Origin: a virus
Lineage: Duplodnaviria > Heunggongvirae > Uroviricota > Caudoviricetes
Virus record (IMG/VR): IMGVR_UViG_2595698945_000001
Reading direction: 5' to 3' (one strand)
Length of the DNA: 24,362 nt
The notes beneath the pieces were generated by a model. That model did no database searches. It saw nothing but the letters and a program-made list of their open reading frames with translations, and was not told the origin of the DNA. How positions within the stretch are numbered: the first letter of the stretch is position 1; each line of letters starts with the position of its first letter. Below, piece after piece: positions 96 to 21,993 of the stretch. Position numbers and translations under genes: made by a program.

Positions 96-113
96 GAGCG
101 CAAGGATGCGCTC
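96..113 (+). promoter_or_regulatory. GGA-loop hairpin (candidate CsrA site) in the terS leader
   Basis: GAGCGCA-AGGA-TGCGCTC, a perfect 7-bp stem; CAAGGATG matches CANGGANG. A second GGA lies in the SD (AGGGA, 126-130) 21 nt downstream. Confidence 0.6.
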
Positions 114-133
114 TGAGTGTTTTAGAGGGATCT

Positions 134-775
134 ATGACTGTAGAAAAAGACGAGAGCAAAACTCGCCTGACACCAGCTGAGTGGGCAGAAGCCGAAGCGA
201 AGTGGACTTCCGGCGAATACACACTCTCCAAGCTGGAGGAAGAGTACGGCATTCGTCGTGAAACGCTCTCCAGACATTTCAAAAAGCGTGGATTGGAGAA
301 AGGCGCGGACTCCGTTGGGAAGATGGTGCGCGAGTCGCTCAAATCCGACGCAGAGCTGCGTGCGAAGGCGCGTGCAGAGAAAATCGAAGAGCGCCGGACT
401 CGTTACGACGATTGGGCGTTCGCACTCGGTCGTATGGTGATGCATGAGGTGGCCACAGCCAAGAAGGACGGCAGGCCACTGGCAGCCATCGAAGATGACC
501 TGAAGAGTCTCCAGCGTGCCAGCGGCACACTCGCTAAGTGCTTCGAAATATCGTCGAAAGCGCTCGGTATGGATCGCGTGGAGAACGAGGACGACGAAAT
601 CCCGAACCTGGTATTTGGCGAACTTACGCCTTCCCAGGTGGCGCAGCTGCGTAAGGAAGATGATGAGCCGGATCTGATTGATGACGATCTGCTTGAGTCA
701 CTCGAAGAGGAAGCACTGAGCGAAGCTGAGGGCGATTCTGACGCGTCTGGTGATGAAAGTGATGGGAGCGTTTAA
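134..775 (+). CDS. terS: Terminase small subunit (N-terminal HTH, acidic C-terminal tail)
   Basis: 213 aa directly upstream of TerL (2-nt gap); HTH-like YTLSKLEEEYGIRRETLSRHFKKRG; helical core; SD AGAGGGA. Confidence 0.75.
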   Translation: MTVEKDESKTRLTPAEWAEAEAKWTSGEYTLSKLEEEYGIRRETLSRHFKKRGLEKGADSVGKMVRESLKSDAELRAKARAEKIEERRTRYDDWAFALGRMVMHEVATAKKDGRPLAAIEDDLKSLQRASGTLAKCFEISSKALGMDRVENEDDEIPNLVFGELTPSQVAQLRKEDDEPDLIDDDLLESLEEEALSEAEGDSDASGDESDGSV

Positions 776-777
776 CT

Positions 778-2034
778 ATGGCCATCCCGTCGTCTCTGAG
801 TCTCGTACAGCTGCATTCTGGGCAGATGCAAGTCTTCCAGTCGCCACATCGTTTCAAAGTGGTGTGTGCGGGTCGACGCTGGGGTAAATCCCGGTTGTCG
901 ATCTCCACCATCATCCGCGCGGCAGCCAAAGAGAAGAAGCAACGTGTCTGGTACGTCGCACCGACTTACCAGATGGCTCGCCAGATCTTGTGGGATGACC
1001 TGCAGGAAGTTCTGCCGCGTAAATGGGTTCGTAAGAAAAACGACACCACGATGACCATCGTGTTGAAGAACGGCTCTGAAATCGCGCTGAAAGGTGCGGA
1101 TAAGCCCGATACGCTTCGTGGTGTGGCACTGCACTTTGTGGTGCTCGATGAATTTCAGGATATGAAGCCGGACACCTGGTACAAGGTACTACGTCCGACA
1201 CTGTCCTCTACCCGTGGCGGTGCGCTGATCATCGGTACGCCAAAAGGCTTCTCCGAGTTCCACAAGCTGTGGACTATCGGTCAGAACAAAGATTTGCAAC
1301 GCAAGGGGCAGTGGAAAAGCTGGCAGTTCGTTACGGCTGATTCTCCGTTCGTACCGAGCGCGGAAATCGAAGCAGCGAAGAACGATATGGACCCTAAATC
1401 GTTCGCACAGGAATACCTGGCCAGCTTCGAAAACATGTCCGGACGCGTTTACTACCCGTTCGACCGCAATGTGCATGTGAAGCCACTCCAGTTCAATCCG
1501 AAACTGCCGATCTGGGTTGGTCAGGACTTCAACATCGACCCTATGTCATCGGTCATCCTGCAGCCGCAGCCAAATGGCGAGTTGTGGGCCGTGGACGAGG
1601 TTGTGCTGTTCTCTTCCAACACGGCTGAAGTGTGTGATGAGCTGGAGCGCCGTTTCTGGCGCTGGAAGTCTCAGGTCACTATCTTCCCTGACCCGGCTGG
1701 TGCGTATCGCCAGCACGCACGCGGCGAATCGGACGTCGATATCTTCAAGGAAAAAGGTTTCCTTCGAGTCGATTATCCGAAGAAGCACCCGCCGATCGCA
1801 GACCGTGTGAATGCAGTGAACCGCATGTTGATGAGTGCCTCGGGCGAAACACGGTTGTACATCGATCCGAAGTGCAAACACCTCATCGACTCGCTGGAGA
1901 AGGTGATCTACAAGCCAGGCTCACGCGATATGGATAAGACTGGCGGCATCGAACACAGTGCGGATGCGTTGGGTTATCCGGTTCATCGTAGGTATCCGGT
2001 GAAAAATCGTGTTATTCTTGGTGGATCTAGATAG
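778..2034 (+). CDS. terL: Terminase large subunit (Terminase_6-like ATPase plus RNase H-like nuclease)
   Basis: Walker A AGRRWGKS, Walker B VVLDE, coupling motif IIGTPKG, nuclease acidic residues in GQDFNIDP and EHSADALGY. Confidence 0.95.
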   Translation: MAIPSSLSLVQLHSGQMQVFQSPHRFKVVCAGRRWGKSRLSISTIIRAAAKEKKQRVWYVAPTYQMARQILWDDLQEVLPRKWVRKKNDTTMTIVLKNGSEIALKGADKPDTLRGVALHFVVLDEFQDMKPDTWYKVLRPTLSSTRGGALIIGTPKGFSEFHKLWTIGQNKDLQRKGQWKSWQFVTADSPFVPSAEIEAAKNDMDPKSFAQEYLASFENMSGRVYYPFDRNVHVKPLQFNPKLPIWVGQDFNIDPMSSVILQPQPNGELWAVDEVVLFSSNTAEVCDELERRFWRWKSQVTIFPDPAGAYRQHARGESDVDIFKEKGFLRVDYPKKHPPIADRVNAVNRMLMSASGETRLYIDPKCKHLIDSLEKVIYKPGSRDMDKTGGIEHSADALGYPVHRRYPVKNRVILGGSR

Positions 2035-2049
2035 GTAAGTGCTTACCTA
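2032..2049. promoter_or_regulatory. 18-bp palindromic operator-like site, copy 1 (before portal)
   Basis: TAGGTAAG-TG-CTTACCTA, a perfect 8-2-8 inverted repeat overlapping the terL stop codon. Confidence 0.7.
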
Positions 2050-2066
2050 ACGTAAAGGAAAAGCAA

Positions 2067-3641: not shown

Positions 3642-3663
3642 TAAGTAACGAAAAGGAATTTCT

Positions 3664-4560
3664 ATGAATCTGTGGCAAATGCTTATGGCCCGTCGTGGCC
3701 TGATGGATGTAGCTGAAGCGCATGAGCGCGGCGGCGCTGGTGGCAGTGCTCCTGCTGGAGACAATGAGCAGAGCAATCAAGACCCAGGCAAACAGGGCGA
3801 GCAAAAAGAGCAACCGAAGGGTGACGACGACGAGTATGCCGGTATGACTCAGGAAGAGTTGCTGGCAGAACTGCGTAAGTCCAAGAAAGCCGGTGCTGAC
3901 CTGCTGAAAGAGAACATGAAGCGCAAGGAGAAAGAGCGCACATTGGCCGATCAGCTGGCTCAGTACGGTGATATTGACCCGGCGCGTGCTCGCCAGCTTC
4001 TCGAAGCTGAACAAGCCGCAGAAACCGCACGTCGGGAGGCGGAGCAGGCTGAACTGGAACGCCGTGGTGAGTTCGATGCTGTGAAAAAGCAGATGATCGA
4101 AGCGCACCAGGCTGAACTGGCACAGCGCGACGAACGCTACTCCGCTCTGGAGAGCGAGAACGCCGCACTGAAGGCTCAACTGGTCGAAATGACGGTTGGC
4201 GCTTCCTTCAGCGGCTCTGCCTTCCTGCGTGACAAAGTTCTGATGACTCCGGCTAAGGCTCGCGTTATCTACGGCTCTCATTTCGAAGTGGGTGAAGACG
4301 GTAGTGTTGTGGGCTTTGATAAGCCAGCCGGTCAGAAAGAACGTGCAGTTCTGGTTGACGGTGAAGGCAAACCGTTACCGTTCGAATCCGCGATTGAGCG
4401 CATTCTGCGTGCAGATCCGGAAGCTGACGCACTGTTGCGCAGCGAAGCCAAGCAGGGTGCTGGTTCCAATAGCAAACCGACCCACAAAGTAAACCAGCCG
4501 AAGAGCAAGTCGACTATGGATAAGTTGACCTCCGGTCTGGGGAAAATCGGACTCAAGTAA
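3664..4560 (+). CDS. Capsid scaffolding protein
   Basis: 298 aa between portal and capsid; low-complexity acidic N-terminal region, long E/K/A/R-rich coiled coil, basic C-terminal tail; no protease motif. Confidence 0.75.
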   Translation: MNLWQMLMARRGLMDVAEAHERGGAGGSAPAGDNEQSNQDPGKQGEQKEQPKGDDDEYAGMTQEELLAELRKSKKAGADLLKENMKRKEKERTLADQLAQYGDIDPARARQLLEAEQAAETARREAEQAELERRGEFDAVKKQMIEAHQAELAQRDERYSALESENAALKAQLVEMTVGASFSGSAFLRDKVLMTPAKARVIYGSHFEVGEDGSVVGFDKPAGQKERAVLVDGEGKPLPFESAIERILRADPEADALLRSEAKQGAGSNSKPTHKVNQPKSKSTMDKLTSGLGKIGLK

Positions 4561-4586
4561 CATCTTAAATCATAGGGAAATGAAAG

Positions 4587-5462
4587 ATGCCATTACTGCG
4601 TGATGAAGCTGAAAAGCTGTCTAACAACGAACTTGAGCAGGGTGTGATCGAGACCATCATCGATCGCGATGACCTGTTCGCTGTTCTGCCTTTCATGAAG
4701 ATTAATTCTAAGGCATACCTCTACAACCGCGAAGCTACCCTGAGCGAAGCAACCTTCATTGATGTGAACGACACCATCACCGAAGGCGCTGCAACCTTCA
4801 CCGAACACGTTGCGAAGCTGCGTATCCTGGCAGGCGACGTAGACGTCGACAAATTCCTGGCGACCACTATGTCCGACACCAACAACCAGCTGGCAATCCA
4901 GGTTCGTCAGAAGGTGAAAGGTCTGGCTCGCGCATTCCGCCGCAACCTGATTCTGGGCGACTCCAGCACCAACACCAAAGCGTTCGACGGCATTCCGAAG
5001 CTGATGCACGACGATCAGAAGATCGACATCGAAGGCGCTTCCATGACCTTCTCCATGTTCGACGAGCTGGTCGACGCGGTGAAAGATCTGGGCGCAGACT
5101 GCATCATGATGCGTTCCGAGCACCTGCGTGCTTATCGCGCTCTGCTGCGTACCGTTAGCCTCGGCCCGTCCGAAATCATGATGGAAAACTTCGGCCGTCC
5201 GATGCTGTGCCACAACGGTGTACCGTTCATCGTGAACGACTTCATCCCGACTGACGCGGGCAAAGCAAGCATCTACTGCCTGCACCTGTCCGAAGAGAAC
5301 GGTGTGACTGGTCTGTATGGCGGTGAAAACGCCGGTATCGTTGTTGAGAACATCGGTACTGTTCAGAACAAAGACGCAACTCGTACCCGCGTTAAGTGGT
5401 ACTGCTCTCTGGCGAACAAGCACGACAAGGCTATCGCCGCGCTGACCAACGTAAAAATTTGA
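4587..5462 (+). CDS. Major capsid protein (HK97 fold, no delta domain)
   Basis: 291 aa after scaffold; strongly biased codon usage; capsid-like motifs (LFAVLPF, LILGDS..NTKAFDGI, P-domain HNGVPFIVNDFIP); followed by a terminator. Confidence 0.85.
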   Translation: MPLLRDEAEKLSNNELEQGVIETIIDRDDLFAVLPFMKINSKAYLYNREATLSEATFIDVNDTITEGAATFTEHVAKLRILAGDVDVDKFLATTMSDTNNQLAIQVRQKVKGLARAFRRNLILGDSSTNTKAFDGIPKLMHDDQKIDIEGASMTFSMFDELVDAVKDLGADCIMMRSEHLRAYRALLRTVSLGPSEIMMENFGRPMLCHNGVPFIVNDFIPTDAGKASIYCLHLSEENGVTGLYGGENAGIVVENIGTVQNKDATRTRVKWYCSLANKHDKAIAALTNVKI

Positions 5463-5471
5463 TCAGTATAG

Positions 5472-5489
5472 TAGGTAAGTAATTATCTA
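5472..5489. promoter_or_regulatory. 18-bp palindromic operator-like site, copy 3 (after capsid gene)
   Basis: TAGGTAAG-TA-ATTATCTA, flanked by a complementary G and C. Confidence 0.6.
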
Positions 5490-5495
5490 CCGTTT

Positions 5496-5524
5496 AAGGG
5501 TGGGCTATACGCCCACCCTTTTTG
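5496..5524 (+). terminator. Rho-independent terminator after the capsid gene
   Basis: AAGGGTGGGC-TATAC-GCCCACCCTT followed by TTTT. Confidence 0.8.
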
Positions 5525-5536
5525 TAGGAGCGAGAA

Positions 5537-6460: not shown

Positions 6461-6467
6461 CCAACAC

Positions 6468-6488
6468 ATGGGCGGCGATGCCGCCCAT
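6468..6488 (+). other. Intergenic hairpin (stability element, pause or weak terminator)
   Basis: ATGGGCGGC-GAT-GCCGCCCAT, a perfect 9-bp stem with no U tract. Confidence 0.5.
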
Positions 6489-6503
6489 TAAGTGAGAAGA
6501 AGA

Positions 6504-7868: not shown

Positions 7869-8213
7869 ATGAACATTTCATGGCAAGCAGAGATAGCGAT
7901 TTACCGTCTGGGTTCGAAGAACGTCTACGGTGAAGCGCAATTGCAGTTCGTCAGGAAGACGAACGTCGGCGTCGTTAAGTTTGAGCAAAGTAACGAGAAG
8001 TCATCGGTACGTGCGGACAGCTCCGGCAGTCGCGGTAAAGCGAATCTGGAATTGTTCGATGCTGTTCTGGTGATCCCACTTGAGGCCGCAGTGCAGCTTG
8101 ATGACGTTCTCATTCTGGAGGGGCAAAAGCTGAAGGTATCCAGCGTGCATCGTCGCTGGGGACTGCGTGGGCGCCCTGGGCATCTGGAAGTAGGGGCAAA
8201 CATATGGGTCTGA
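7869..8213 (+). CDS. Head closure (stopper) protein
   Basis: 114 aa from the ATG with SD GGGAGAG; beta-rich; ends in the stopper-like VQLDDVLILEGQKLKVSSVHRR...HLEV. The track's TTG start at 7755 lacks an SD. Confidence 0.6.
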   Translation: MNISWQAEIAIYRLGSKNVYGEAQLQFVRKTNVGVVKFEQSNEKSSVRADSSGSRGKANLELFDAVLVIPLEAAVQLDDVLILEGQKLKVSSVHRRWGLRGRPGHLEVGANIWV

Positions 8214-9062: not shown

Positions 9063-9083
9063 TAAAATAAGTAAGTATATACT
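9054..9083 (+). promoter_or_regulatory. Sigma70-like promoter for the tail tube operon
   Basis: TTGAAT (9054-9059), 18 bp, TATACT (9078-9083); the predicted start near 9090 coincides with a small hairpin GGCACC-GTGAA-GGTGCT (9091-9107). Confidence 0.5.
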
Positions 9084-9086
9084 TAC
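9068..9086. promoter_or_regulatory. 18-bp palindromic operator-like site, copy 4 (over the -10)
   Basis: TAAGTAAG-TA-TATACTTA (9068-9085), which also contains the perfect 16-bp palindrome GTAAGTATATACTTAC (9071-9086). Confidence 0.6.
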
Positions 9087-9136
9087 CATTGGCACCGTGA
9101 AGGTGCTGATTTAACGGAAAAAGGAGTTTTCCAACA

Positions 9137-9883
9137 ATGTCCAATACCCATGTAAAAAACATCAAACTTGGCGCCTGCAAAGTGTCGTTTGGTGGCGTTG
9201 ATCTGGGTTACACCAAAGGCGGTGTTCAGGTTGAAGTTGCGACCGAAACTCTGAAAGTCACCGTAGACCAGCTGGGGCAGACCACCATCTCCGAGCTGGT
9301 ACAGGGTCGTAACATCACTATCACTGCACCGCTGGCCGAGTCTGTGTTGAAGAATATGGTCGATCTGATGCCGGGTTCTACCCTGAGCGAAGAAGATAAC
9401 TCTGTGACCATCACTTCCGCACAGGGTGTCAACCTGATCGACGTAGCCAAAGAGCTGGTTCTGACCCCGCAGGATACTACCGACTATGTCCTGACCATTC
9501 CGAAAGCTGCAACCGCAGGTAACTTCACCATGACCTACCAGTCTGATGATGTTCGCGTGTTCTCCGTTCAGTTCACCGCTTACCCGGATGACGACGGTGT
9601 GCTGGGGAAAATGAGCGGCCCAAAGCCGGTTAAAACCGTCTCTATCTCTCCGGAATCTCCGGAAGTTAAAGCCGGTGAGACAGTGCAACTGGCTGCGCAG
9701 ATCACCCCTGCAGATGCCGGCGACAAAACCGGTGTGTGGGAATCCGACAATCAGGAGAAAGCAACCGTTGACCAGACTGGTCTGGTTCGCGGAGTAGCTG
9801 AAGGTTCGGCAAATATCTCCTTCACCAGCAATAGCGGCGGAAAGAAAGCGACCAAAGCAGTAACGGTTAATTCTGCCCAATAA
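9137..9883 (+). CDS. Major tail tube protein with an in-frame C-terminal Ig-like domain
   Basis: About 160-aa tube domain (DLGYTKGGVQVEV) followed by a Big_2-type repeat; biased codon usage; SD AAGGAG. Confidence 0.85.
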   Translation: MSNTHVKNIKLGACKVSFGGVDLGYTKGGVQVEVATETLKVTVDQLGQTTISELVQGRNITITAPLAESVLKNMVDLMPGSTLSEEDNSVTITSAQGVNLIDVAKELVLTPQDTTDYVLTIPKAATAGNFTMTYQSDDVRVFSVQFTAYPDDDGVLGKMSGPKPVKTVSISPESPEVKAGETVQLAAQITPADAGDKTGVWESDNQEKATVDQTGLVRGVAEGSANISFTSNSGGKKATKAVTVNSAQ

Positions 9884-9900: not shown

Positions 9901-9926
9901 AGAGGCTCAGGAAGAGCCTCTCTTTT
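9901..9926 (+). terminator. Terminator-like hairpin with a GGA loop (also a candidate CsrA site)
   Basis: AGAGGCTC-AGGAA-GAGCCTCT then CTTTT; CAGGAAG matches the CsrB repeat CAGGA[UAC]G; SD GGA 18 nt downstream (9931-9933). Confidence 0.65.
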
Positions 9927-9942
9927 AAAAGGACTTTAACCA

Positions 9943-10260
9943 ATGACCAAATTACTCGATCTCGACTCCATTCTGCCTCCGAAGAAAAGCATCAAGTTCG
10001 GTGGTCAGGAATACCCCATCGTTGAAATGACTGTTGGCCTGTTCGTCTCCATTAAGCAGATGGAAGGCAAAGACCTCCAGAGCATGTCGCCTGTTGAGCA
10101 GGTTACCGCTTACGCCGAACTGGTTCGCAAGGTCATCCCATCCGTGCCGGACGCTGTACTGGAAAAACTGACTGTCCCGCAGCTCCAGCAGATCTTCACC
10201 TTCGCTATGGAAGTGATTGATGAAGAGAACGAAAAAGCGGCTGGTGAAGGGGCAAAGTAA
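9943..10260 (+). CDS. Tail assembly chaperone (lambda gpG-like)
   Basis: 105 aa between tail tube and tape measure genes; ends GGG GCA AAG TAA at a candidate slippery site. Confidence 0.8.
   Translation: MTKLLDLDSILPPKKSIKFGGQEYPIVEMTVGLFVSIKQMEGKDLQSMSPVEQVTAYAELVRKVIPSVPDAVLEKLTVPQLQQIFTFAMEVIDEENEKAAGEGAK
10251..10257 (+). other. Programmed -1 ribosomal frameshift site G GCA AAG
   Basis: The -1 frame has TGA at 10245-10247 and the zero frame has TAA at 10258-10260, so any shift is confined to 10248-10257. The -1 frame is then open to 10610. Confidence 0.75.
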
Positions 10261-10610
10261 TTTCCCGCGATGAATCCGGGGTAAAGACCGTATCGATAGA
10301 TCTCGGATTCTATTTCAGTCGTGTAGTTGCTCACTACGCCGTGTCGCCATTAGAGCTGCTGGGCGTCCCTCTAACGATGTTCTGGATGCTCAGTCGCAAC
10401 ATCGACCGTCTGCGCGCGGAAGAGGATGTCCGCAACCTGCAAGTCGCTCGCGCTGCCCAGGCAGATGGCGAGGGCGTGAAGGCGTTCATGGAGGGTTTGC
10501 AACTCAGGATTGGAAGACCAGTCGTAACCGATAAAGTCTACGATCCACGCAAAGATAAGGCAGACCCTGACGCCAAAGAGCAACTGATGCAAATTTTTGG
10601 CAGAGGATGA
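10257..10610 (+). CDS. C-terminal part of the frameshifted chaperone (gpGT-like, fusion about 222 aa)
   Basis: The -1 frame reads VISRDESGVKTVSIDLGFYFSRVVAHYAVSPLELLGVPLTMFWML...QIFGRG and continues into the track ORF 10341-10610, which has no good SD of its own. Confidence 0.75.
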   Translation, partial: VISRDESGVKTVSIDLGFYFSRVVAHYAVSPLELLGVPLTMFWMLSRNIDRLRAEEDVRNLQVARAAQADGEGVKAFMEGLQLRIGRPVVTDKVYDPRKDKADPDAKEQLMQIFGRG

Positions 10611-10617
10611 CAAGGGA

Positions 10618-13600
10618 ATGTCACAAAACGTAGAGTTTATCCTGTCGCTGGAAGACAAGCAGTTTACAGCGTCAATCGACCGGGCGGGTAAGCTACTTAC
10701 CAGATTCGGGGAGCAGGCCACAAAGCCAGCTCAGAAAATTAACAATCTGGAACGCTCGTTGGGTTCGGTCTCCCGCATCATCGGCGTTCTGGAGTCCAAG
10801 CTCGATGCCACGGCAGACAAACTACAGGATGTAGCTGCCGGCTTCGAGCTTGTGTCTGATGTTTCGCGCAAGACGCGAGGCAACATTACCAGCCTCAATT
10901 CAGGTCTCAAAACTCTGATTGAGCGCGTCGACACAACCACCTCATCCGTTAATAAACTCACCACATCGCTGCGCAAGGTTCAGTCTGAACTCAATGAGTT
11001 TTCCGATTGGGCAACGTTCGCTGGTAAGAGCGCCAGCCGCTTCGGTACGGAGGTAAAAGAAGCCTCTGCATCCGTGAGTGGCATGAATACGCGCCTTAAC
11101 ACCACGACGAAGCGTCTCAGCAATTGGGGCGTCACAACGAGCCAGGCTGCCGAGGGGCTGAAGAAAGTCCGCGATCAGATGGATGCGGTGATTGGCCGCC
11201 AGCAACTGATCAGTAAGCCGGTGCGTGTGCGCACCAGCGGCTACGGTGAGGGCGGTGGTAATGGCGGTGGCGGTCGACACAGCGGTTCCTATGGCCACGG
11301 CGGGCGCGGTGCTGAAAATGGCGTGTTCTCTGGTCTGCGCGGCAATATTTTCCTGCTGGGCGAGATTGGTGATGCGGCAAGAACGGTAACTGACATCCTG
11401 TTCGGCTGGCAGAAGCCAATCGTCGAAGCTGCCTCCGAAATGGAGCGTATGCGCGTCATGTTGCGCGGGCTGAACAAGGACAAGGCCAACCCTGGCAAAG
11501 CAGCCGCAGAGGATATGCAGTACATCGTGGATATGGCGCAAAACGCCCCGTTTGCGATGCAGGCGCTGACCGATTCCTTCGTTAAATTCCGCTCGGCAGG
11601 TCTCGATCCTACTGACGGATCGCTGAAAGCGCTGGTGGACTCCGTTGCACGCTTCGGCGGCGATAGCGAGCTGCTTAAACGTGCTGCCGTGGCTGTTCAG
11701 CAGATGTCCGGTAAGGGCGTCGTGTCGATGGAAGAACTGCGTCAGCAATTAGGTGAAGCCGTTCCTAACGCGATGAAGGCGATGGCAGACGCTGCCGGTA
11801 TCACTATGGGGGAACTGACCAAAGCAGTCTCCACCGGTACTGTGGAAGCGAAACAGGCGCTATCGCTGATGTTCGTTGGTCTGCGTGCAGAGAACGAAAA
11901 CGCCGCCAAAGACATGATGCAGACCTACACCGGTGCTCTGGCGCAACTGCAAACCTCCTTTACGCTATTTGCTGATCGCGTCGGTCAGGCGGGCTATCTG
12001 GATTCTCTCTCAAAGGGAATGAAAGAGCTGGCCTCCATCATGAACAGCGCTGAAGGCATTTCGTTCGCTAACTCATTAGGTTCCGGACTTACCACCGCAA
12101 TCGACAGCTTACGTGAGCTGGCGCAGTGGCTGGCGAAAAACCAGGAGTTGATTGTCAACCTGGGCAAAGTAGTGGCCGCTATGGTGGCGTTCAAACTGAT
12201 GCGTGCGGGCATCATGGGCGTGATTGGCACTGCCGGGCAGATGGTTAACACGTTTGCGACGATGTCGACTGTCATCCAGGCGCCGTTCAATCTGGGCGCG
12301 ACAGCTGTCACTCGCTTTAATCGTGCGGCTCGTATGGGTCTGGCTCCACTCCCATCGCTGATCTTCGCTATCCGTGGCGCGATTACGGGGCTACAGGGGG
12401 CATTCGCTGGTCTTACTGCGTTCATCGCAGCAAACCCAATTGGCGCAGCGTTTACCGTCGCTACCGTGGCTGTGGCTGGGCTGATCACGTATATGACCAT
12501 GCTCCGCAGCGAAACGTCAAAAGTCGTTGACGAGATCCGCAAAATCCCGGAGGCGATGACGGCGGCTAAACGTGCGCAGATGGCAGAGCGTGCGGAAAAG
12601 CTCGAAAAAGAGATCATCGCAGACCAGCGAGCGCTCAAAACAGGCGAAAGCGTGAGCTATGTGTCCAACTCTGTTGGCGCTGTCACTCACAAAGAGTCAA
12701 AAGCCGATATTGAGGCTCGCCTGAAGAAGAATCAGGAAGAGTACCAGAAGATTACCGGCACCATTGCGCTGGGTGACGGGGCTGTAGCCAAACGTCTGGC
12801 TAAAGAGGCAGCAGAATCCCAGATTGAGAAAATCCGGGCCGACAATCAGGTCTTCTCTGCGACATTTGTGAAAGCACGTCAGGAGGCTCTGGACAAGATC
12901 CAGAAAATCAATGACGACAAATCACTGTCCGACGATGAGAAGAACAAACTTCTCGCACCGCTCCGTGAAACGGTGAATAAGTCATACCTGGAACCGGCGC
13001 AAAAACTGGTCGATTCCCTGTCCTCCCGTAAAAACGCGACCGAGAAGCAGATTGCCCACTACAACGATCTGCTCGAAAAAGCGAAGAAAGAGGGCAATAC
13101 AGAGCAGATTCAGAAGCTACAAGGCATTATTCGAGGCTATCAGGAGCATCTGGAAGCTGTCGCTCAGGAGTTGACTCAGGCCGAGTTTGAGCGTGATAAC
13201 GCTGCCAAAACTGGTAAGGGCGTCATGTCCAACCAGGGAACCGTTTTGGGGCTTGGTACGAGCGACAAGGCGGCCCAGAAAGCTTTGGCGCAGTACATGC
13301 GCAACCAAATGGACTCCGCAACCTATCAGCGCACGTTGCCAGACGGTACGGCGATGCTGGACTTCGAAGGTAAGCCGATCATTGGGCCGAAGCAGCTCAA
13401 AACCCAGCTGAACCTGCAGAAAGCCTCCAGCGCCAGCTCTCTGGAGAAAATGAGCGACGAGGAACGTGCAGCAGCGATCGCCGCACTAACCAAAGCGCGT
13501 GAGCAGGATGCAGCAGCAGCGGAAAAAGCCGGCCAGCGCACTGCCAATGCTTCTCAGCGTGCCGCGAGGAAGGAAGAAAATGCGCAGCGTAAGCTGGCGG

Positions 13601-15198
13601 CCGGCTACCAGAAAGCGCTGGATAAAGCCGATCAGCTTATGGGGCAGATGGGTGAAAGCTCTAAAGCGACCGTGTCGTTTGACCAGTCTCTACGCGATAC
13701 CACCAAATCGCTGACCGAACTGGCCAACGCCGTACCGAATGAGTTCATCACTCAGGAGATGATCGACAAAGCCAAGTCACGCCTTGCTGATCTGGCTAAC
13801 GCGAGCGACGACTACCGCGAGATGTTCAACCGCCGCAACGTCGAGCAGATGATCTCCACCTGGGCGCCGGAATCCGATTCCATCATTAGCGCGGGTTACA
13901 AGCCGTCTCGTGAAGAGAAGGTGGCCGATTTCAACGACACCTACAACCGTAACCTGAAAGCGTTGATGGATCTGCGTGACCAGGCTTCTGATCCGAAAAT
14001 TGTGGCGCTGTACACCAAGCAGATCAATCAGCTTGTTGCCGCTGGCAATACCGCGCTCATCAAAGAGACCGGCACGGCCACGCAGAAGCTGGCGCTTGAG
14101 TATGAAAATCTGGCCGAGCAACTGGAAAATAGCTGGAGCAATCTGTTCAGCAGTCTCACCGATACGCTCACCGACTTCGTTATGAAGGGAAAAATGGACT
14201 TCTCCAGCCTGGCAGAATCCATTCTCCGCGACATCACCAACATGGTTGTGAAGACGCAGATCACCCTGCCTCTCATGAACATGCTGGGGATGGGAACGAC
14301 GGCAGCTGGCAGCTCTCAGAGCGGCAATCTGCTTTCTGGTGTCGCGTCAGCGGTTGCCAATCAGGGCGTCCGTATGAATGCGGTCAACGGTGACAAGTCA
14401 GTAGGTGAAGCGACGAAAGAGACCTCCAGTTCTGTGTCCGGATTGGGTCAGACGACTCAGCAAACGACCAGCGCTATCGGTACGGCAACCAACGCGATTG
14501 GGAGTTGGGTGTCGGGGCTGTTCAGTAGCACCGAGGCCAAAGAAGCTGAAACTAAAGCAGTGAAGACCTCCATCTTCTCAATGCAGAATCTCAGCTCTGT
14601 TACTGGCGCACTCTCCGCTGCGTTCGCCATGTTGGGGGCAAATGCTTCCGGATCAGGCAACAAGTGGTTGAGTTTCGGTTCGACAGTGGTTTCCGGATTG
14701 GTATCAGCCTGGGCTGGTGGCGGGTTTGATAGTCTGATGTCGGGTTCCTCTGGCAGCTCGGGGTTTAACAATCTGACTGGTTCCGCGGCAGATGGTACGA
14801 ATGGCATTCCTTCAATTCCGAAGTTCGCTAAAGGCGGCATTTTCGGGAAAGACGGAGTGGTTCCGCTCCGGGCGTACCAGAAAGGTGGCATCGCGGACTC
14901 CCCACAGCTGGCGTTGTTTGGCGAAGGAGACATGAACGAAGCCTACGTTCCGCTTCCGGATGGTCGTTCCATCCCGGTCACGCTCAATGCAGAGAGTGTT
15001 AAAGGCGGTGGCGGCGGCGTGTTCTCCCCCGTCAGCATTGAGATCAACGTCAACAGCGACGGCAGTGTCACGGAGAACAGCAATTCCGAAGGCGCATGGA
15101 GTCAGGCCGCACAGCGCATGAAGGCGATCGCGCTTGAAACCATCGCTCAGGAGAAGCGACCAGGCGGTTCGCTCAACCCTAACTCTCAACGTAACTAA
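10618..15198 (+). CDS. Tape measure protein, 1526 aa
   Basis: SD AAGGGA before ATG 10618; tape-measure N-terminal domain (AQNAPF...QQMSGKGVVSMEELRQQLGE), hydrophobic segments, lambda-type C-terminal FAKGG...GEGDMNEAYVPL. Confidence 0.95.
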   Translation: MSQNVEFILSLEDKQFTASIDRAGKLLTRFGEQATKPAQKINNLERSLGSVSRIIGVLESKLDATADKLQDVAAGFELVSDVSRKTRGNITSLNSGLKTLIERVDTTTSSVNKLTTSLRKVQSELNEFSDWATFAGKSASRFGTEVKEASASVSGMNTRLNTTTKRLSNWGVTTSQAAEGLKKVRDQMDAVIGRQQLISKPVRVRTSGYGEGGGNGGGGRHSGSYGHGGRGAENGVFSGLRGNIFLLGEIGDAARTVTDILFGWQKPIVEAASEMERMRVMLRGLNKDKANPGKAAAEDMQYIVDMAQNAPFAMQALTDSFVKFRSAGLDPTDGSLKALVDSVARFGGDSELLKRAAVAVQQMSGKGVVSMEELRQQLGEAVPNAMKAMADAAGITMGELTKAVSTGTVEAKQALSLMFVGLRAENENAAKDMMQTYTGALAQLQTSFTLFADRVGQAGYLDSLSKGMKELASIMNSAEGISFANSLGSGLTTAIDSLRELAQWLAKNQELIVNLGKVVAAMVAFKLMRAGIMGVIGTAGQMVNTFATMSTVIQAPFNLGATAVTRFNRAARMGLAPLPSLIFAIRGAITGLQGAFAGLTAFIAANPIGAAFTVATVAVAGLITYMTMLRSETSKVVDEIRKIPEAMTAAKRAQMAERAEKLEKEIIADQRALKTGESVSYVSNSVGAVTHKESKADIEARLKKNQEEYQKITGTIALGDGAVAKRLAKEAAESQIEKIRADNQVFSATFVKARQEALDKIQKINDDKSLSDDEKNKLLAPLRETVNKSYLEPAQKLVDSLSSRKNATEKQIAHYNDLLEKAKKEGNTEQIQKLQGIIRGYQEHLEAVAQELTQAEFERDNAAKTGKGVMSNQGTVLGLGTSDKAAQKALAQYMRNQMDSATYQRTLPDGTAMLDFEGKPIIGPKQLKTQLNLQKASSASSLEKMSDEERAAAIAALTKAREQDAAAAEKAGQRTANASQRAARKEENAQRKLAAGYQKALDKADQLMGQMGESSKATVSFDQSLRDTTKSLTELANAVPNEFITQEMIDKAKSRLADLANASDDYREMFNRRNVEQMISTWAPESDSIISAGYKPSREEKVADFNDTYNRNLKALMDLRDQASDPKIVALYTKQINQLVAAGNTALIKETGTATQKLALEYENLAEQLENSWSNLFSSLTDTLTDFVMKGKMDFSSLAESILRDITNMVVKTQITLPLMNMLGMGTTAAGSSQSGNLLSGVASAVANQGVRMNAVNGDKSVGEATKETSSSVSGLGQTTQQTTSAIGTATNAIGSWVSGLFSSTEAKEAETKAVKTSIFSMQNLSSVTGALSAAFAMLGANASGSGNKWLSFGSTVVSGLVSAWAGGGFDSLMSGSSGSSGFNNLTGSAADGTNGIPSIPKFAKGGIFGKDGVVPLRAYQKGGIADSPQLALFGEGDMNEAYVPLPDGRSIPVTLNAESVKGGGGGVFSPVSIEINVNSDGSVTENSNSEGAWSQAAQRMKAIALETIAQEKRPGGSLNPNSQRN

Positions 15199-15204
15199 CC
15201 ACGG

Positions 15205-15240
15205 CTGCCCCGGAAGGGGCAGTCTCACAAGGATGTGAGA
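15205..15240 (+). promoter_or_regulatory. Tandem GGA-loop hairpins; the second encloses the SD and first base of the gpM-like gene
   Basis: CTGCCCC-GGAA-GGGGCAG (15205-15222) and TCTCACA-AGGA-TGTGAGA (15223-15240). ACAAGGATGT matches the core of the CsrA SELEX consensus RUACARGGAUGU. Confidence 0.7.
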
Positions 15241-15575
15241 TGGAAAGACTGACTTTTAACTGGTATCCCGACTACGAGTCGGAAAAGACCGTGAAGCCTA
15301 ACGTGGCGGTTCTGAATTTTGGTGACGATTACGAACAGCGCCAGGCCAAAGGTCTCAATCGCATCAAAGAAGAGTGGAGCCTGACATTTACGCGCTCTTA
15401 CGACGTCATCAATGCCGTCGATGACTTTCTAACGGCACGCGCGGCCGTTGAGTCGTTCTACTGGACGAACCCTCGTGGCAAAAAGATTGTTGTGGTGTGC
15501 GACAGCCATACGGTCAAACGTTACCAGGGCTATCAGGTTCTCACTGCGACCTTCAGACAAATTTATGAAGGATAA
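15240..15575 (+). CDS. Minor tail protein, lambda gpM-like (distal tail)
   Basis: 111 aa; FGDDYEQRQAKGLN, FL.AR.AVESFYWT.P and LTATFRQ motifs; follows the tape measure gene. Confidence 0.9.
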   Translation: MERLTFNWYPDYESEKTVKPNVAVLNFGDDYEQRQAKGLNRIKEEWSLTFTRSYDVINAVDDFLTARAAVESFYWTNPRGKKIVVVCDSHTVKRYQGYQVLTATFRQIYEG

Positions 15576-15585
15576 TTTAACCCAC

Positions 15586-15614
15586 TAGATAAGTAAGCAC
15601 TTATTTACTATTAT
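15586..15614 (+). promoter_or_regulatory. Sigma70-like promoter for the L-K-I-J genes
   Basis: TAGATA (15586-15591), 17 bp, TATTAT (15609-15614). Confidence 0.5.
15590..15607. promoter_or_regulatory. 18-bp palindromic operator-like site, copy 5 (in the promoter spacer)
   Basis: TAAGTAAG-CA-CTTATTTA. Confidence 0.7.
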
Positions 15615-15618
15615 TTAT

Positions 15619-15643
15619 AGGCGCTGACAGGATGTTGGCGCCT
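15619..15643 (+). promoter_or_regulatory. GGA-loop hairpin (candidate CsrA site or attenuator) in the gpL-like leader
   Basis: AGGCGCTGAC-AGGAT-GTTGGCGCCT, a 10-bp stem with two G-U pairs and ACAGGATGT at the apex; SD CAAGGAAG has its GGA 22 nt downstream; followed by CTTTATTT. Confidence 0.65.
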
Positions 15644-15664
15644 CTTTATTTCAAGGAAGAAACG

Positions 15665-16363
15665 ATGGGTATTAAAGCTGATATTCAGAGCTTGTCGCCC
15701 TCCGCGCTCATTGAGTTGTTCGAACTTGATATGTCGAACACCACCTCTGGGGGCAAGCTGTTTTTCCACGCCGGCACAAACGAACTGATGGAGCCAGTCG
15801 TTTGGCAGGGTGTGTCCTACGAACCGTGGCCAATCAAAGCGTCAGGCTTTGATAAGACTGGTCAGGGTACTTTGCCGCGTCCAAAAATCCAGGTCTCCAA
15901 CTTTGCCGGAACTGTCTCCGCTGAAGTTCAGGCAAACGACGATCTGGTGGGTTGCCGCATCATCCGCAAGATGACGCTGGCGCGTTTTCTCGATGCGGCC
16001 AACTTCAAAGACGGGAATCCAACCGCAGATCCAAATCAGCACTTCCCGGATGAGATGTGGTTCATCGAACAGAAGACTCTCGAAACTCATGAGGTCGTCG
16101 AGTTTGAGCTGTCGAGTGTGTTCGATCTGATGGGCGTGCAGCTGCCGTACCGCCAGATCATCAAAAACACCTGCCCGTGGAAATACCGCGGCCCAGAGTG
16201 CGGCTACACCGGCCCATATTTCGACAAAAACAACCAGCAAACCACCATGTCAGGCGCGGATTACTGCACGAAACGCTACGACTCATGCAACGCTCGCCGT
16301 AACTACTTTGCCAATGGCGTAATCCACTTTGGCGGGTTCATCGGAGCAACGCGTTATGGGTAA
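15665..16363 (+). CDS. Minor tail protein, lambda gpL-like (4-Cys Fe-S motif)
   Basis: 232 aa from ATG 15665 (SD AAGGA); ALIELFELD and C-terminal C-x8-C-x22-C-x6-C; the track start at 15632 lies inside the leader hairpin. Confidence 0.9.
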   Translation: MGIKADIQSLSPSALIELFELDMSNTTSGGKLFFHAGTNELMEPVVWQGVSYEPWPIKASGFDKTGQGTLPRPKIQVSNFAGTVSAEVQANDDLVGCRIIRKMTLARFLDAANFKDGNPTADPNQHFPDEMWFIEQKTLETHEVVEFELSSVFDLMGVQLPYRQIIKNTCPWKYRGPECGYTGPYFDKNNQQTTMSGADYCTKRYDSCNARRNYFANGVIHFGGFIGATRYG

Positions 16364-17731: not shown

Positions 17732-17748
17732 TAAGGGATTTTTTGAAC

Positions 17749-20700
17749 ATGGAACAGTTCAAGAAGAAAAGGCTGCCTCTCCTGATCGCAGGTGCAGGCG
17801 GCAAGAAAAGCAGCAGCTCCAGCCGCACGCCGGTTGAAGCCGATGATACCGTTAACTCGCGTGCTATGGCGTCTATCCTCGACTTGCTCGGGGAAGGCGT
17901 TATTGGCGGTCTTGTCAACGGGGCAAAGTCGATTTTCATCGACGACCTGCCGATTCTCAATGAAGACGGCTCTGCCAACTACAGCGGTATTACTTGGGAC
18001 TTTCGTGACGGCTCGCAAGACCAGACGCCGATGGACGGTTTCGATTTTGTTGAAACGCCCAAATCCATCAACATTCAGCTGAAAAAGACACATGAGGTGA
18101 CAGTCTCCATCGATAACGATGAAGCTGACCGCGTTCGAGTCATCCTCAAATTTCCCTCTCTGCGTAGCGTGGATAAGAAATCGGGTGACACCAACGGCAC
18201 AGCAGTCAAATACAAGTTTCAGATCGCCAATGGCGATGGAACATTTGCTGATGTAGTTGCTGAAGGCGAGAAAAGTGTTGAAGTTGCCCTGACAGCGAAG
18301 AAGACAGGTGTTTACTACCGCAGCTACGAACTCAAACTGCCGAAACCTGGCCGTGCATACAAGGTTCGTGTCATACGCCTAACCGACGACAGCAAAACTC
18401 AGTATCTCTATAACGATACGTGGGTGGACTCCATCGGTGAAATCGTCGATACGCCAATGAACTATCCGAACTCTGCGCTTGTTGGACTCAAGGTTAACTC
18501 CGAGCAGTTCGGTAGCTCTATGCCTTCTCGTTCGTATCTGGTGCGTGGTTTGAAAATCCGCGTGCCGTCAAACTACAACGAGAATACCAATACCTATGTT
18601 GGTGTTTGGGACGGTACGTTTAAGCTGCTGTCATCCTCTAACCCAGCCTGGATTCTCTTCGACGTTCTGACCAACGCTCGATATGGCCTTGGGCAGTTTG
18701 TCTCTGAGTCCATGATTGATCTTGGACAGATGTATCAGATCGGTCGCTATTGCGACGAAGAGGTTGTCGATGGTTTCGGCGGCAAGGAGAAGCGTTTCGC
18801 CATCAACACCCAGATAACCAGCCGGCAGGATGCCTATCGACTGATTCAGGATATCGCTGGCGCCTTCCGCGGTATGGTCTTCTGGGCTGGTGGAATGGTC
18901 AACGTCATGCAGGACAGCCCGTCAGATCCGGTCATGATGTTTACCAACGCAAACGTCAAAGATGGCCTGTTTAGCTATAAAGGTTCAGCTCGTAAAGATC
19001 GTCCTTCCGTTGCGCTTGTCACCTATAACAACAAAGAAGACGGCTACAAACAGAACATCGAGTACGTCGAAGACCAGGAGGCGATGCGTCGTTATGGCGA
19101 GCGCAAAACCGAAGTGGTTGCGTTCGGTTGTACCAGCCGTGGCCAGGCGCATCGTGTCGGTTTGTGGTTGCTGTATACCGCTCGCATGGAGTCTGACGTT
19201 ATTACCTTTACTGCAGGTCTTGACGCTTCGTTCTTAATGCCTGGTGAAACCGTGCTGATCCAGAACAAGTACCGTTCGGGCAAGCGCAACTCCGGTCGCA
19301 TTATGTCCTTTAACAAGAACAGCATCACATTAGACGCACCAGTATCGTTGAAGAAAAGCGGCAGCTACATTCGCATCTTGAACCAGGAAGGCAAGATCGT
19401 CGAACGCGACATTCTGGAGACGGGGGAGAATATCACTAAAGTGACGTTCTCGAAGTCTCTGGCATCCGGCGAAATGCCAGTAATGAATGGCATCTGGACT
19501 ATCACCGAACCAGACCTGGAGCCAATGCGAGTACGCGTTATCAACGTTGCGCAGGGTGATGCTCAAGGGTCTTTCGATGTGACGGTCGTCCAGAATAACC
19601 CTTCGAAGTACGAAGCGATAGACAATGGGGCGACGCTGATTCCGGAGAACAACACCGTTCTCGATCCAACATACTCGAAGCCGACAAACCTGCAGGTGAC
19701 GGAAGGAACGTATATTTCCAGCCCTGGCAACCTTTCCATCAAGCTTATTGCGACCTGGGAAGGTAAGTCTGCTGAATATTGGATCAGTTGGCGTCGCTCG
19801 GACGAGAACAACGTTTCTAACTGGCAGTCCGCGCGTGTCACTGAAGAGCAGTACGAAATCATCAATATTGCCGAGAATGGCCAATATGATATCCAGCTTT
19901 ATGCTGTGTCATTCAGCGGCAAAAAGACTGAGATCATCAGTACAGTCTATAAAGTTCAGGGAACGATGACACCGCCAGGCGCACCGACTGCGTTGACAGC
20001 CGTGGGTGACTATCGCAACGTGATTCTGAATTGGGTTAACCCTGATTCAATCGATCTCGACCACATCAACGTGTATGCGTCACAGACCAACGACCTGGAC
20101 ACCGCAAAACTGATTGCCGAGGCCGCCAGTACTACTTTCACCCATGCAGGTCTGGGGGATAGCGAAACGTGGTTCTATTGGGTTCGCGCGGCAAATAAGA
20201 GAGGCATGTTGAGTCCGCCAAACTCCAATTTGGGTACCGAGGCGATGACAAAGGATGTTCTCTCATTCCTGACAGGGAAAATCACATCTTCTGAGTTGGG
20301 ACAGGAGTTGCTTGAGGAAATCGACTCTAAGGTTTCTCAGGAGGCTGTTGATTCTATCTATCAGCAGATGGAAGAGAGCCTCAAAGATCTCGATGACAAG
20401 TTGACGGCGGCAGATCAGAGACTAGAAGAAGCGCAAAACGGGCTTAAAACGGAAGTGTCCGGCACTTTGGATAAGGTCAATGACGCTCTGCAACAGGTTG
20501 AAGATTCCAATGCGGCTTTAGTTGAGTTACAGGAAACTGTATCCGAGCAGGGCAAAGCCGTAGCTGGCGCGGTCGAAGCAGCTCATGCAGCACTCGATAA
20601 TGCCTCTGCATTGATTGCCGAAGAACGTGAGGCCCGAGTAGAAGGCGATATGGCGAACGCCAAACAGATTGAGGCGATGAAGTCTTCTGTTGACGATAGC

Positions 20701-21906
20701 GTTGCTGCTGTTGAAGAGATGAAGAAAACTGTGGCCGAAGTCGAGCGAGCCAGCGCGGAAGTGACCACCAATATTGAGGCATTGGCCAAAACCAATATCG
20801 ATCTTGCTCTGCGTCAGGATGAAGACCAGCACAAGCAGATGGTCAATAACGCGAAGATTGCCACCACTCAGAAGACGTTTGCCGACGATATGTCTGCAAT
20901 GGCCTCGAAAGTGGAAGAGATCCGCGCAGAAATTGGTGAAGATATTCGCGCTTCTATCACTGAAGAAACGACGGCTCGTGTTGAGGCTGATAAGGCTATT
21001 GCGACCCAAATAACCAAGCTTGAAGCTCAGATTAACGACGATATCGCTGCGGCAATTGTGACCGAACAAGAGGCTCGTGCAACAGCGGATGAGTCGTTGT
21101 CGAAGCAGATCACAACATTGCAAGCGAAGGTTGAGGGAGATATCAGCGCGGCGCTGGCCGAAGAGCAGATTGCAAGAGCGACCGCCGACGAATCGTTGGC
21201 GCAACAAATCACAACACTAAAGGCCCAAACAGGCGCCGACATTAAGGCGGCTGTTGCGGAAGAAACGAAAGCCAGAACCGATGCCGACTCTGCGCTGGCA
21301 GGGCAAATCACCGATTTGCAGGCTCAGACAGGAAAAGATATCAGTGCCGCAATTACTTCTGAAGCAACTGCACGCGCGGAAGCCGATAAAGCACTAGGTG
21401 GTCGTATTGATACGATTAAGGCTGAAGTAGACGGCAACTCGGCCACTATCCAGCAGCAGGCCCAGGCAATTGCCGATACCAACAAAAAGGTTTCGACAGC
21501 GTGGACGCTTAAAATGGAGACTTCCACGAGCGGTGGCCAGAAATATGTTGCCGGTATCGCGCTGGGCATTGATAGCACAGGTCTTTCTCAGTTCCTTGTT
21601 CAAGCAGACCGCTTTGGTCTTGTGAACTCGGTTAACGGGAAAATCACCACACCGTTTGTGGTCGAAAACAGCGTTGCTTACATGAACGGCGCTTTTATCA
21701 AGGATGGAACAATCACCAACGCCAAAGTTGGCGACCTACAGTCCACCAACTTTGTCTCTGGCCGTTCGGGATGGCGCTTTGGGAAAAATGGCGTGCTGGA
21801 GATCAACGGTAATAGTGGCGGTAACGGTCGTCTGGTCATCAACGGCCAGCGTATCGACGTCTATGACGACAACAACGTTCTCCGAGTGAGGATTGGGCTT
21901 CTTTGA
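17749..21906 (+). CDS. Central tail fibre / tail tip protein, lambda gpJ-like, 1385 aa
   Basis: N-terminal DLLGEG.IGG, SSNPAWILFD, fibronectin-III-like repeats, long coiled coil, DUF1983-like SQFLVQADRF and C-terminal RVRIGLL. Confidence 0.92.
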   Translation: MEQFKKKRLPLLIAGAGGKKSSSSSRTPVEADDTVNSRAMASILDLLGEGVIGGLVNGAKSIFIDDLPILNEDGSANYSGITWDFRDGSQDQTPMDGFDFVETPKSINIQLKKTHEVTVSIDNDEADRVRVILKFPSLRSVDKKSGDTNGTAVKYKFQIANGDGTFADVVAEGEKSVEVALTAKKTGVYYRSYELKLPKPGRAYKVRVIRLTDDSKTQYLYNDTWVDSIGEIVDTPMNYPNSALVGLKVNSEQFGSSMPSRSYLVRGLKIRVPSNYNENTNTYVGVWDGTFKLLSSSNPAWILFDVLTNARYGLGQFVSESMIDLGQMYQIGRYCDEEVVDGFGGKEKRFAINTQITSRQDAYRLIQDIAGAFRGMVFWAGGMVNVMQDSPSDPVMMFTNANVKDGLFSYKGSARKDRPSVALVTYNNKEDGYKQNIEYVEDQEAMRRYGERKTEVVAFGCTSRGQAHRVGLWLLYTARMESDVITFTAGLDASFLMPGETVLIQNKYRSGKRNSGRIMSFNKNSITLDAPVSLKKSGSYIRILNQEGKIVERDILETGENITKVTFSKSLASGEMPVMNGIWTITEPDLEPMRVRVINVAQGDAQGSFDVTVVQNNPSKYEAIDNGATLIPENNTVLDPTYSKPTNLQVTEGTYISSPGNLSIKLIATWEGKSAEYWISWRRSDENNVSNWQSARVTEEQYEIINIAENGQYDIQLYAVSFSGKKTEIISTVYKVQGTMTPPGAPTALTAVGDYRNVILNWVNPDSIDLDHINVYASQTNDLDTAKLIAEAASTTFTHAGLGDSETWFYWVRAANKRGMLSPPNSNLGTEAMTKDVLSFLTGKITSSELGQELLEEIDSKVSQEAVDSIYQQMEESLKDLDDKLTAADQRLEEAQNGLKTEVSGTLDKVNDALQQVEDSNAALVELQETVSEQGKAVAGAVEAAHAALDNASALIAEEREARVEGDMANAKQIEAMKSSVDDSVAAVEEMKKTVAEVERASAEVTTNIEALAKTNIDLALRQDEDQHKQMVNNAKIATTQKTFADDMSAMASKVEEIRAEIGEDIRASITEETTARVEADKAIATQITKLEAQINDDIAAAIVTEQEARATADESLSKQITTLQAKVEGDISAALAEEQIARATADESLAQQITTLKAQTGADIKAAVAEETKARTDADSALAGQITDLQAQTGKDISAAITSEATARAEADKALGGRIDTIKAEVDGNSATIQQQAQAIADTNKKVSTAWTLKMETSTSGGQKYVAGIALGIDSTGLSQFLVQADRFGLVNSVNGKITTPFVVENSVAYMNGAFIKDGTITNAKVGDLQSTNFVSGRSGWRFGKNGVLEINGNSGGNGRLVINGQRIDVYDDNNVLRVRIGLL
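20941..21435 (+). repeat. Five tandem 99-bp (33-aa) repeats in the J-like shaft
   Basis: Units start at 20941, 21040, 21139, 21238 and 21337; consensus DI.AAI.EE..AR..AD.ALA.QIT.L.AQ.G. Confidence 0.85.
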
Positions 21907-21937
21907 CAGTAGAAATATTTCTTCATATCGGTAAAAA

Positions 21938-21955
21938 TAAGTAGGTACTTACTTA
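21938..21955. promoter_or_regulatory. 18-bp palindromic operator-like site, copy 6 (before the side fibre gene)
   Basis: TAAGTAGG-TA-CTTACTTA, one mismatch from a perfect palindrome. Confidence 0.7.
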
Positions 21956-21957
21956 AT

Positions 21958-21977
21958 GGCGGGCGGGGATGCCCGTC
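21958..21977 (+). promoter_or_regulatory. GGA-loop hairpin (candidate CsrA site) in the side fibre leader
   Basis: GGCGGGC-GGGGAT-GCCCGTC; SD CAAGGAG has its GGA 15 nt downstream. The loop lacks the A of ANGGA. Confidence 0.5.
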
Positions 21978-21993
21978 TTATCAAGGAGCGAAT

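Follow-up and report, generated by a model that had tools for sequence, protein, structure and literature searches.

Several virion genes of a phage-plasmid of the SSU5/pHCM2/pMT1 type are preceded by short GC-rich hairpins that display a GGA in the loop, an observation that is confirmed here and is statistically robust. The window, by which we mean the whole stretch of 24,362 nucleotides (nt; 24.4 kb) of IMG/VR record IMGVR_UViG_2595698945_000001, is the late (virion) operon of this phage-plasmid, and every gene in it is on the + strand. The hairpins lie before terS, between the tail tube and chaperone G genes, after the tape measure stop codon, at the ribosome-binding site of the M gene, between M and L, and between J and the side fibre gene (Table 1). 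They are enriched and strand-specific, the loop motif is conserved at most of these sites as the stems turn over, and the replicon is without csrA. Our best reading, to which we give a probability of about 0.5, is that host CsrA reads the loop GGA, bridging to a GGA in the Shine-Dalgarno (SD) sequence, and lowers the translation of virion genes. We infer the binding of CsrA, an outcome of repression rather than of stabilisation or altered termination, and any link to carbon status or stoichiometry.

The hairpins and the downstream Shine-Dalgarno sequences

A sequence-only reading of the window had singled out six hairpins with a loop GGA and had taken five leaders to be two-site CsrA targets, and its description of the DNA was accurate. 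All six hairpins are present where it had placed them, the loop strings that it quoted are correct, and the distances from the loop GGA to the SD GGA are exactly 21, 18, 16, 22 and 15 nt for terS, G, M, L and the side fibre gene. The GGA is unpaired in all six hairpins, whether folded alone or in local context with RNAfold, and the three hairpins that had been described as free of a loop GGA, after the capsid gene, after the Ig gene and before the tube gene, are indeed so. The capsid, decoration and tube genes are without such an upstream site. Part of the two-site claim also stands, in that a second GGA does occur at the SD within bridging distance; this feature is weakly informative and adds little beyond the hairpin, because a GGA occurs in the SD region of 15 of the 20 window genes. 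CsrA bridges sites about 10-63 nt apart, with an optimum near 18, and the window spacings of 15-22 nt fall inside this range. The terS SD, AGAGGGATCT, is invariant among relatives. At gpM the supposed second GGA is itself the loop of the hairpin at 15223-15240 and is the true SD, the loop AAGGA being located 6 nt from the ATG, whose A (15240) closes the stem. The gpL start in RefSeq relatives is the equivalent of 15665, with a proper SD; an in-frame ATG at 15632, inside the loop of the M-L hairpin, is the start in the Cyrano annotation and has no usable SD spacing.

The window loops are C-AAGGAT-G (twice), C-AGGAA-G, C-AGGAT-G and C-GGGGAT-G. The ANGGAN hexaloop form reportedly comes from work on RsmE and hcnA. 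The CsrA consensus obtained by in vitro ligand selection (SELEX) is RUACARGGAUGU, with the GGA in a hairpin loop (PMC2896534, PMC4347634), and the gpM hairpin matches ACAAGGAUGU of it. The repeat of CsrB is CAGGA[UAC]G. By site, the matches are ACAAGGATGT at 15223-40, CAAGGATG at 96-113, ACAGGATGT at 15619-43 and CAGGAAG at 9901-21; CGGGGATG at 21958-77 has one mismatch to the consensus, relatives having CAAGGATG at this place, and CCGGAAGG at 15205-22 is a poor match. A scan with a terminator consensus flagged the M-L hairpin, weakly flagged 95-114, and left unflagged the tube-G hairpin (4 T), the hairpin after the tape measure gene, the gpM hairpin and the J-fibre hairpin. By analogy with the T1 terminator of ColE7, the roles of terminator and CsrA site would not be exclusive in one hairpin.

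Enrichment over chance

A loop GGA was found in six of the nine intergenic sense-strand hairpins of the window (the intergenic assignment being based on the annotation of relatives), as against none of the 24 intercistronic terminator hairpins that the annotations of N15, HK97 and T1 give for their late regions (hypergeometric 84/1,107,568 = 7.6e-5). In a host-like chromosome (G001, 680 kb), about 3.5-4% of GC-rich hairpins have a loop GGA, in coding and intergenic sequence alike. We also counted strict CsrA-type hairpins, defined by a stem of at least 5 base pairs, a closing C-G pair and a loop of the form ANGGAN or AGGAN. The window has five of these on the + strand and none on the - strand, while the host-like chromosome has 13 per 1.36 Mb of strand, or 0.96 per 100 kb strand, which gives an expectation of 0.23 for the window (Poisson P ~5e-6). 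In the closest complete plasmid, nine of nine strict hairpins are on the transcribed strand. No strict hairpin was found in the lambda late region, P2, N15 or T1, and one was found in HK97 (L370, 35828-35843); it has the loop ACGGAT and lies directly after the Q gene, in the late leader region.

Conservation of loops and stems

The junctions compared for conservation came from 11 relatives with annotation, some 300 IMG/VR loci and a single complete genome of a distant clade (50-80% protein identity), the relatives being mostly 80-98% identical. The sequence-only reading had named as a test whether the loop GGA persists as the stems covary. It does so at the pre-terS, gpM SD, M-L and J-fibre sites, does so in part at the tube-G site, and does not at 15205-15222. 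At the first four sites the pattern C-A-N-GGA-N-G or C-AGGA-N-G, both classical forms of CsrA sites, is kept, with N1 being A, T or G and N2 being T, A, C or G at several of them, so that there is purifying selection on the loop GGA with a free stem; at pre-terS, M-L and J-fibre the stems have been wholly replaced, in addition to covarying.

Before terS there is no loss of GGA in 85 loci (24 distinct variants). The loops are AAGGAT, ATGGAC (E. coli clade), AAGGAA (Klebsiella and the distant clade) and AGGAA, on stems that are compensated or replaced (gagcAc/gTgctc, ggcgtc/gatgcc, cggcgc/gcgccg), and the column profile gives 100% conservation for the loop A and the GGA, as against 60% for N1 and 40% for N2. 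The M-L hairpin has the loops AGGAT, AGGAA, AGGAG and AGGAC on three unrelated stems, including caacgtcAC-AGGAT-GTgacgttg in the Klebsiella clade and gccccc-AAGGAT-gggggc in the distant clade, and is lost in only two singletons of 92 loci. In one IMG/VR relative (L063, about 1060-1125) a tandem (GATGGT)n repeat stands in place of this hairpin. At J-fibre the GGA is kept in 21 of 24 distinct variants with more than 10 different loops, among them AAGGAT, ATGGAT, AGGGAT, GGGAAT, AAGGAC, AAGGATA and ATGGAAC, and both sides of stem pairs 4, 5 and 7 have changed in compensation; these pairs were counted with a register-aware script, as 7-nt-loop variants fall out of register in the MAFFT alignment. 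The gpM SD hairpin of relatives has the loops AAGGAT, AAGGAA and AAGGAC on covarying stems (atcac/gtgat, tctc/gaga) and is missing from the L034/L039 variants and the distant clade; conservation of its loop is anyway expected of an SD. At the tube-G site four clades keep the GGA, as AGGAA, AGGAT, ATGGAT (with a covarying stem) and AGGAC (distant clade).

The control hairpins after the capsid and Ig genes change their loops across relatives and are without GGA. The hairpin before the tube gene has a GGA in two other clades, a pattern suggestive of site turnover. Two further GGA-loop hairpins (AGGAG, AGGAT) occur in the distant clade (G003; L367/L368, reverse strand) between the I and J homologues, and two GGA-loop hairpins stand ahead of its fibre gene.

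These results bear on the alternative in which nothing reads the hairpins: they would be ordinary terminators or mRNA stabilisers between genes, and their loop GGA would be incidental to stable, purine-rich loops and common descent. The hairpin at 15205-15222 behaves exactly so, the hairpins at 15619-15643 and 95-114 pass the terminator scan, the tube-G loop tolerates loss of GGA, and with relatives as close as these some of the conservation is inertia. However, none of the 24 equivalent hairpins of N15, HK97 and T1 has a loop GGA, neighbouring control hairpins of the same genomes vary their loops freely, the strict matches are all on the sense strand, and the GGA outlasts complete stem replacement at three sites and is found in a clade with 50-80% protein identity. 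We consider this alternative very improbable for the set as a whole.

Candidate readers of the loop motif

The sequence-only reading had allowed for a phage-encoded CsrA-like protein and had raised the matter of a CsrB-like sponge RNA on the replicon. Neither was borne out. No match to PF02599 was found at E<=1 in a six-frame search of six complete genomes of the family (NZ_CP133340.1, Cyrano, NZ_CP097685.1, NZ_CP097387.1 and two complete IMG/VR genomes), and a phage-encoded CsrA was rejected as the reader. A scan of the whole closest plasmid at Rfam gathering thresholds returned tRNA only, by which a CsrB-like sponge was rejected for the known families. With no csrA and no known sponge RNA on the replicon, any CsrA-type reader would therefore be host CsrA. 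A single csrA (92 bits) is present in the host-like genome, along with CsrB (333 bits) and CsrC (206 bits), and the hairpins of these two RNAs include atCAGGATGat, gatCAGGAAGatc and ttATGGATgaa, the same units as the window loops.

GGA hairpins were found most densely clustered outside the window, in an mRNA leader downstream of rnhA that has two of them, so that the GGA-hairpin theme extends past the late operon. This leader, of a 164-residue hypothetical gene, has two CsrB-like hairpins, ttcgtCAGGATGacgaa and gttccAGGATggaac, together with two other hairpins and an SD GGA, and lies between rnhA and a Rha-family regulator (L366:2190-2300, - strand; about 89,690-89,800 of NZ_CP133340.1). Its layout recurs in Cyrano as well as in a Klebsiella plasmid, where AAGGAT takes the place of the second loop. 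Within the window a coding hairpin at 7946-7964 (gttcgtc-AGGAA-gacgaac), inside the head-closure gene, has a stem near-identical to that of the first hairpin of the rnhA-downstream leader; it is conserved as coding sequence, and the Y. pestis copy has GAA.

A different reader could also be envisioned, either a phage RNA-binding protein that has escaped recognition (repressing translation, or acting in antitermination in the manner of boxB/N) or an RNA contact between loops that happens to require A(N)GGA. The phage-plasmid family has dozens of genes of unassigned function, the two terminator-like hairpins are places where an antitermination or processing factor could act, and a recurrent unit of the operon runs from stop codon through AT-rich palindrome and GC hairpin to SD. 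Against this, no candidate protein has emerged and no complementary UCC-loop partner turned up, though no search was aimed at one, and the motif agrees in detail with both classical CsrA forms and with the host CsrB hairpins, which would otherwise be a coincidence. We regard such a reader as quite unlikely. A boxA/boxB-like nut site at the terS leader was considered and dropped, since the L011 and distant clades do not retain the CGCTCT of the 3' arm.

Proposed mechanism and the points that weigh on it

In the CsrA reading, four to five of the hairpins (pre-terS, pre-G, gpM SD, pre-L and pre-fibre) would be selected RNA elements showing A(N)GGA on short GC stems. Their reader would most likely be the host CsrA dimer, with one face on the loop GGA and the other capturing the SD GGA 15-22 nt downstream, and at gpM, where loop and SD coincide, CsrA would occupy the SD itself. 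The result would be reduced initiation at the low-copy packaging (terS), chaperone (G), tail-tip (M, L) and fibre genes.

Several observations weigh against this reading. The loops of the window hairpins are purine-rich overall, which puts the chance rate of GGA above 1/64, and the frequency of GGA among the SDs makes the bridging geometry nearly automatic. At the tube-G site the GGA has been lost three times, as AGGCA in the Cronobacter clade (10 loci), ATGAT in L171 and ATGAC in L011. The hairpin at 15205-15222 has the loops GACC, GGTC, GTAA, TCTTCG (UUCG-type), TTAGC and TTAT in relatives, with ACAGGAAGU at this position in the L011/L086 clade only; since its loop is unconstrained, it was rejected as a CsrA site and is an ordinary hairpin. 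The benefit to the phage of having an abundant host repressor damp its virion genes is not obvious. Finally, a weak AU hairpin at 9116-9132 (GGAAAA/TTTTCC), invariant in 87 loci, has the SD of the tube gene, AGGAG, in its loop. The tube is the most abundant tail protein, and SD-in-loop may therefore promote translation rather than repress it, perhaps as a general design of this phage.

The tube SD leads to the alternative of ribosome recruitment, in which the loop AGGA keeps the true SD accessible at gpM (and, in some clades, at L) and ahead of the other genes serves as a 30S standby site or enhancer, with a positive effect and no part for CsrA. Besides this highly expressed gene, the loop GGA of gpM is a real SD at a proper distance from its ATG, the L gene of the L011/L086 clade is built likewise with its SD in the loop, and AAGGA is a good SD core. 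However, the true SD lies 15-22 nt beyond the upstream hairpins, which have no start codon behind them at a distance fit for an SD; for this reason small upstream open reading frames with the loop GGA as their SD were also rejected. The base after GGA is free and is not G. ATGGAC and ATGGAT recur independently at three sites, where ANGGAN is kept with only 3 nt of anti-SD complementarity, and together with AGGGAT and AGGAC they persist with only 3-4 nt of it; the ATGGAN and AGGGAN variants, with only three anti-SD bases, argue against a simple SD mimic for the upstream hairpins. We know of no established precedent for conserved standby hairpins of such form. It seems to us unlikely that ribosome recruitment accounts for the sites.

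The CsrA reading can be carried further, to a scheme of lock followed by titration, in which a csrA-less family of enterobacterial phage-plasmids (SSU5, pHCM2, pMT1-related, Cyrano and Klebsiella phage-plasmids) would have placed its genes for packaging, tail tip and fibre, together with one or more early leaders, under the host Csr system. As long as the element stays a plasmid, host CsrA would keep leaky late transcripts locked at the post-transcriptional level, as a safety device. Upon induction, a flood of late mRNA, with at least five high-affinity sites per transcript, would titrate CsrA, such that virion protein synthesis would set in with a threshold-like onset and the host Csr regulon would be derepressed as a side effect. 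This is a speculative extension, which we think rather improbable.

Gene order and neighbouring elements

The closest records to the window are Enterobacter hormaechei IncFIB plasmids (98%), and the late operon is common to about 800 PLSDB plasmids, whose hosts include Klebsiella, Escherichia, Enterobacter, Yersinia and Salmonella. A virion-producing relative, Cyrano of E. coli LF82, is induced by ciprofloxacin (PMC9928086). An AT-rich palindrome, TAAGTA..TACTTA, is found at 2035-2050, 5470-5490, 9068-9088, 15588-15608 and 21935-21956, just past stop codons and just 5' of GC hairpins, and is well conserved among relatives. A short palindrome, AAACAAGTTGTTT, at 80-92, directly 5' of the terS leader hairpin, is near-invariant across clades and could be where a protein binds the late promoter or leader.

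Table 1. Hairpins, Shine-Dalgarno GGA motifs and genes of the window
Feature	Position	Strand	Remarks
Pre-terS leader hairpin	96-113; extended 95-114	+	GAGCGC-AAGGAT-GCGCTC; extended GGAGCGC-AAGGAT-GCGCTCT; C-ANGGAN-G hexaloop type
terS SD GGA	128-130	+	Start codon 134-136; 21 nt after loop GGA
Tube-G hairpin	9901-9921	+	AGAGGCTC-AGGAA-GAGCCTCT; CsrB-type CAGGAAG; then CTTTT
G SD GGA	9931-9933	+	Start codon 9943-9945; 18 nt after loop GGA
Hairpin after tape measure stop codon	15205-15222; extended 15203-15224	+	CTGCCCC-GGAA-GGGGCAG; extended GGCTGCCCC-GGAA-GGGGCAGTC; stable tetraloop
gpM ribosome-binding hairpin	15223-15240 (listed 15222-15242)	+	TCTCAC-AAGGAT-GTGAGA
M-L hairpin	15619-15643	+	AGGCGCTGAC-AGGAT-GTTGGCGCCT, then CTTTATTT; carries ACAGGAUGU / CAGGAUG
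gpL SD GGA	15655-15657	+	Likely start codon 15665; 22 nt after loop GGA
J-side fibre hairpin	21958-21977	+	GGCGGGC-GGGGAT-GCCCGTC
Fibre SD GGA	21985-21987	+	Start codon 21994-21996; 15 nt after loop GGA
Terminator after capsid gene (control)	5496-5520	+	Loop TATAC, then T-run
Hairpin after Ig gene (control)	6468-6488	+	Loop GAT; relatives ATA, GAAA, TCT
Hairpin before tube gene	9089-9110	+	Loop GTGAA; relatives CGGAAT (Klebsiella clade), C-AAGGAAT-G (distant clade)
terS	134-775	+	
terL, portal, scaffold-like genes		+	In order after terS
Capsid	4587-5462	+	
Ig decoration, then connector genes		+	Between capsid and tube
Tail tube	9137-9883	+	
Chaperone G	9943-10260	+	Followed by T
Tape measure	10597-15198	+	
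M	15240-15575	+	
L	15665-16363	+	Followed by K, I
J	17743-21906	+	
Side fibre	from 21994	+	

Significance

A full-text literature search returned nothing on CsrA control of phage late genes or of SSU5-type phage-plasmids. If the CsrA reading is right, the stoichiometry or timing of virion assembly would be under the direct control of a host protein that globally regulates carbon and stationary-phase physiology, in a widespread group of phage-plasmids that also carries resistance and defence cargo. It would add to phage late-gene control a post-transcriptional layer of which that search gave no description. If CsrA is not the binder, the conserved A(N)GGA loops would still mark an RNA signal without an explanation.

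Comparison with known systems

The closest precedent is cel, a lysis gene on the plasmid ColE7, where CsrA binds the loop GGA of the T1 terminator (BS1) and the SD GGA (BS2), as shown by gel shift, and represses translation four- to five-fold (PMC2896534). As in the window, this is an inducible polycistronic operon on a mobile element, with a GGA in an intercistronic hairpin loop and another in the SD of the next gene. The M-L hairpin has the same anatomy, being a terminator look-alike with a CAGGAUG loop and an SD GGA downstream, and, T1 being a terminator, two window hairpins likewise pass the terminator scan. The ColE7 case concerns one lysis gene, for which CsrA has been shown, whereas the window has the layout at five junctions of a 24-kb virion operon and is known from its sequence; if the parallel holds, the ColE7 case would be widened from one lysis gene to a viral structural operon. 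In the E. coli glgC leader, CsrA is held at a GGA in the loop of an upstream hairpin, from where its second surface reaches the SD GGA (PMC2896534). The sites of glgC are in a 5' leader, whereas those of the window are intercistronic, except at terS, and their targets are viral structural genes.

The units of CsrB and CsrC, short stems with CAGGAUG, CAGGAAG and AUGGAU loops, are like those of the window, but CsrB and CsrC pack about 20 sites in a non-coding RNA, whereas the window has one per junction, spread over coding mRNA. Another phage encodes a csrA homologue with an effect on fitness (PMC11879866); the SSU5-type family, without a csrA homologue in the six complete genomes searched, would instead depend on the host protein. 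Considering these comparisons together, the best available placement of the window leaders, judged from their sequence, would be in the known class of CsrA-type hairpin-plus-SD leaders, at an unusual place.

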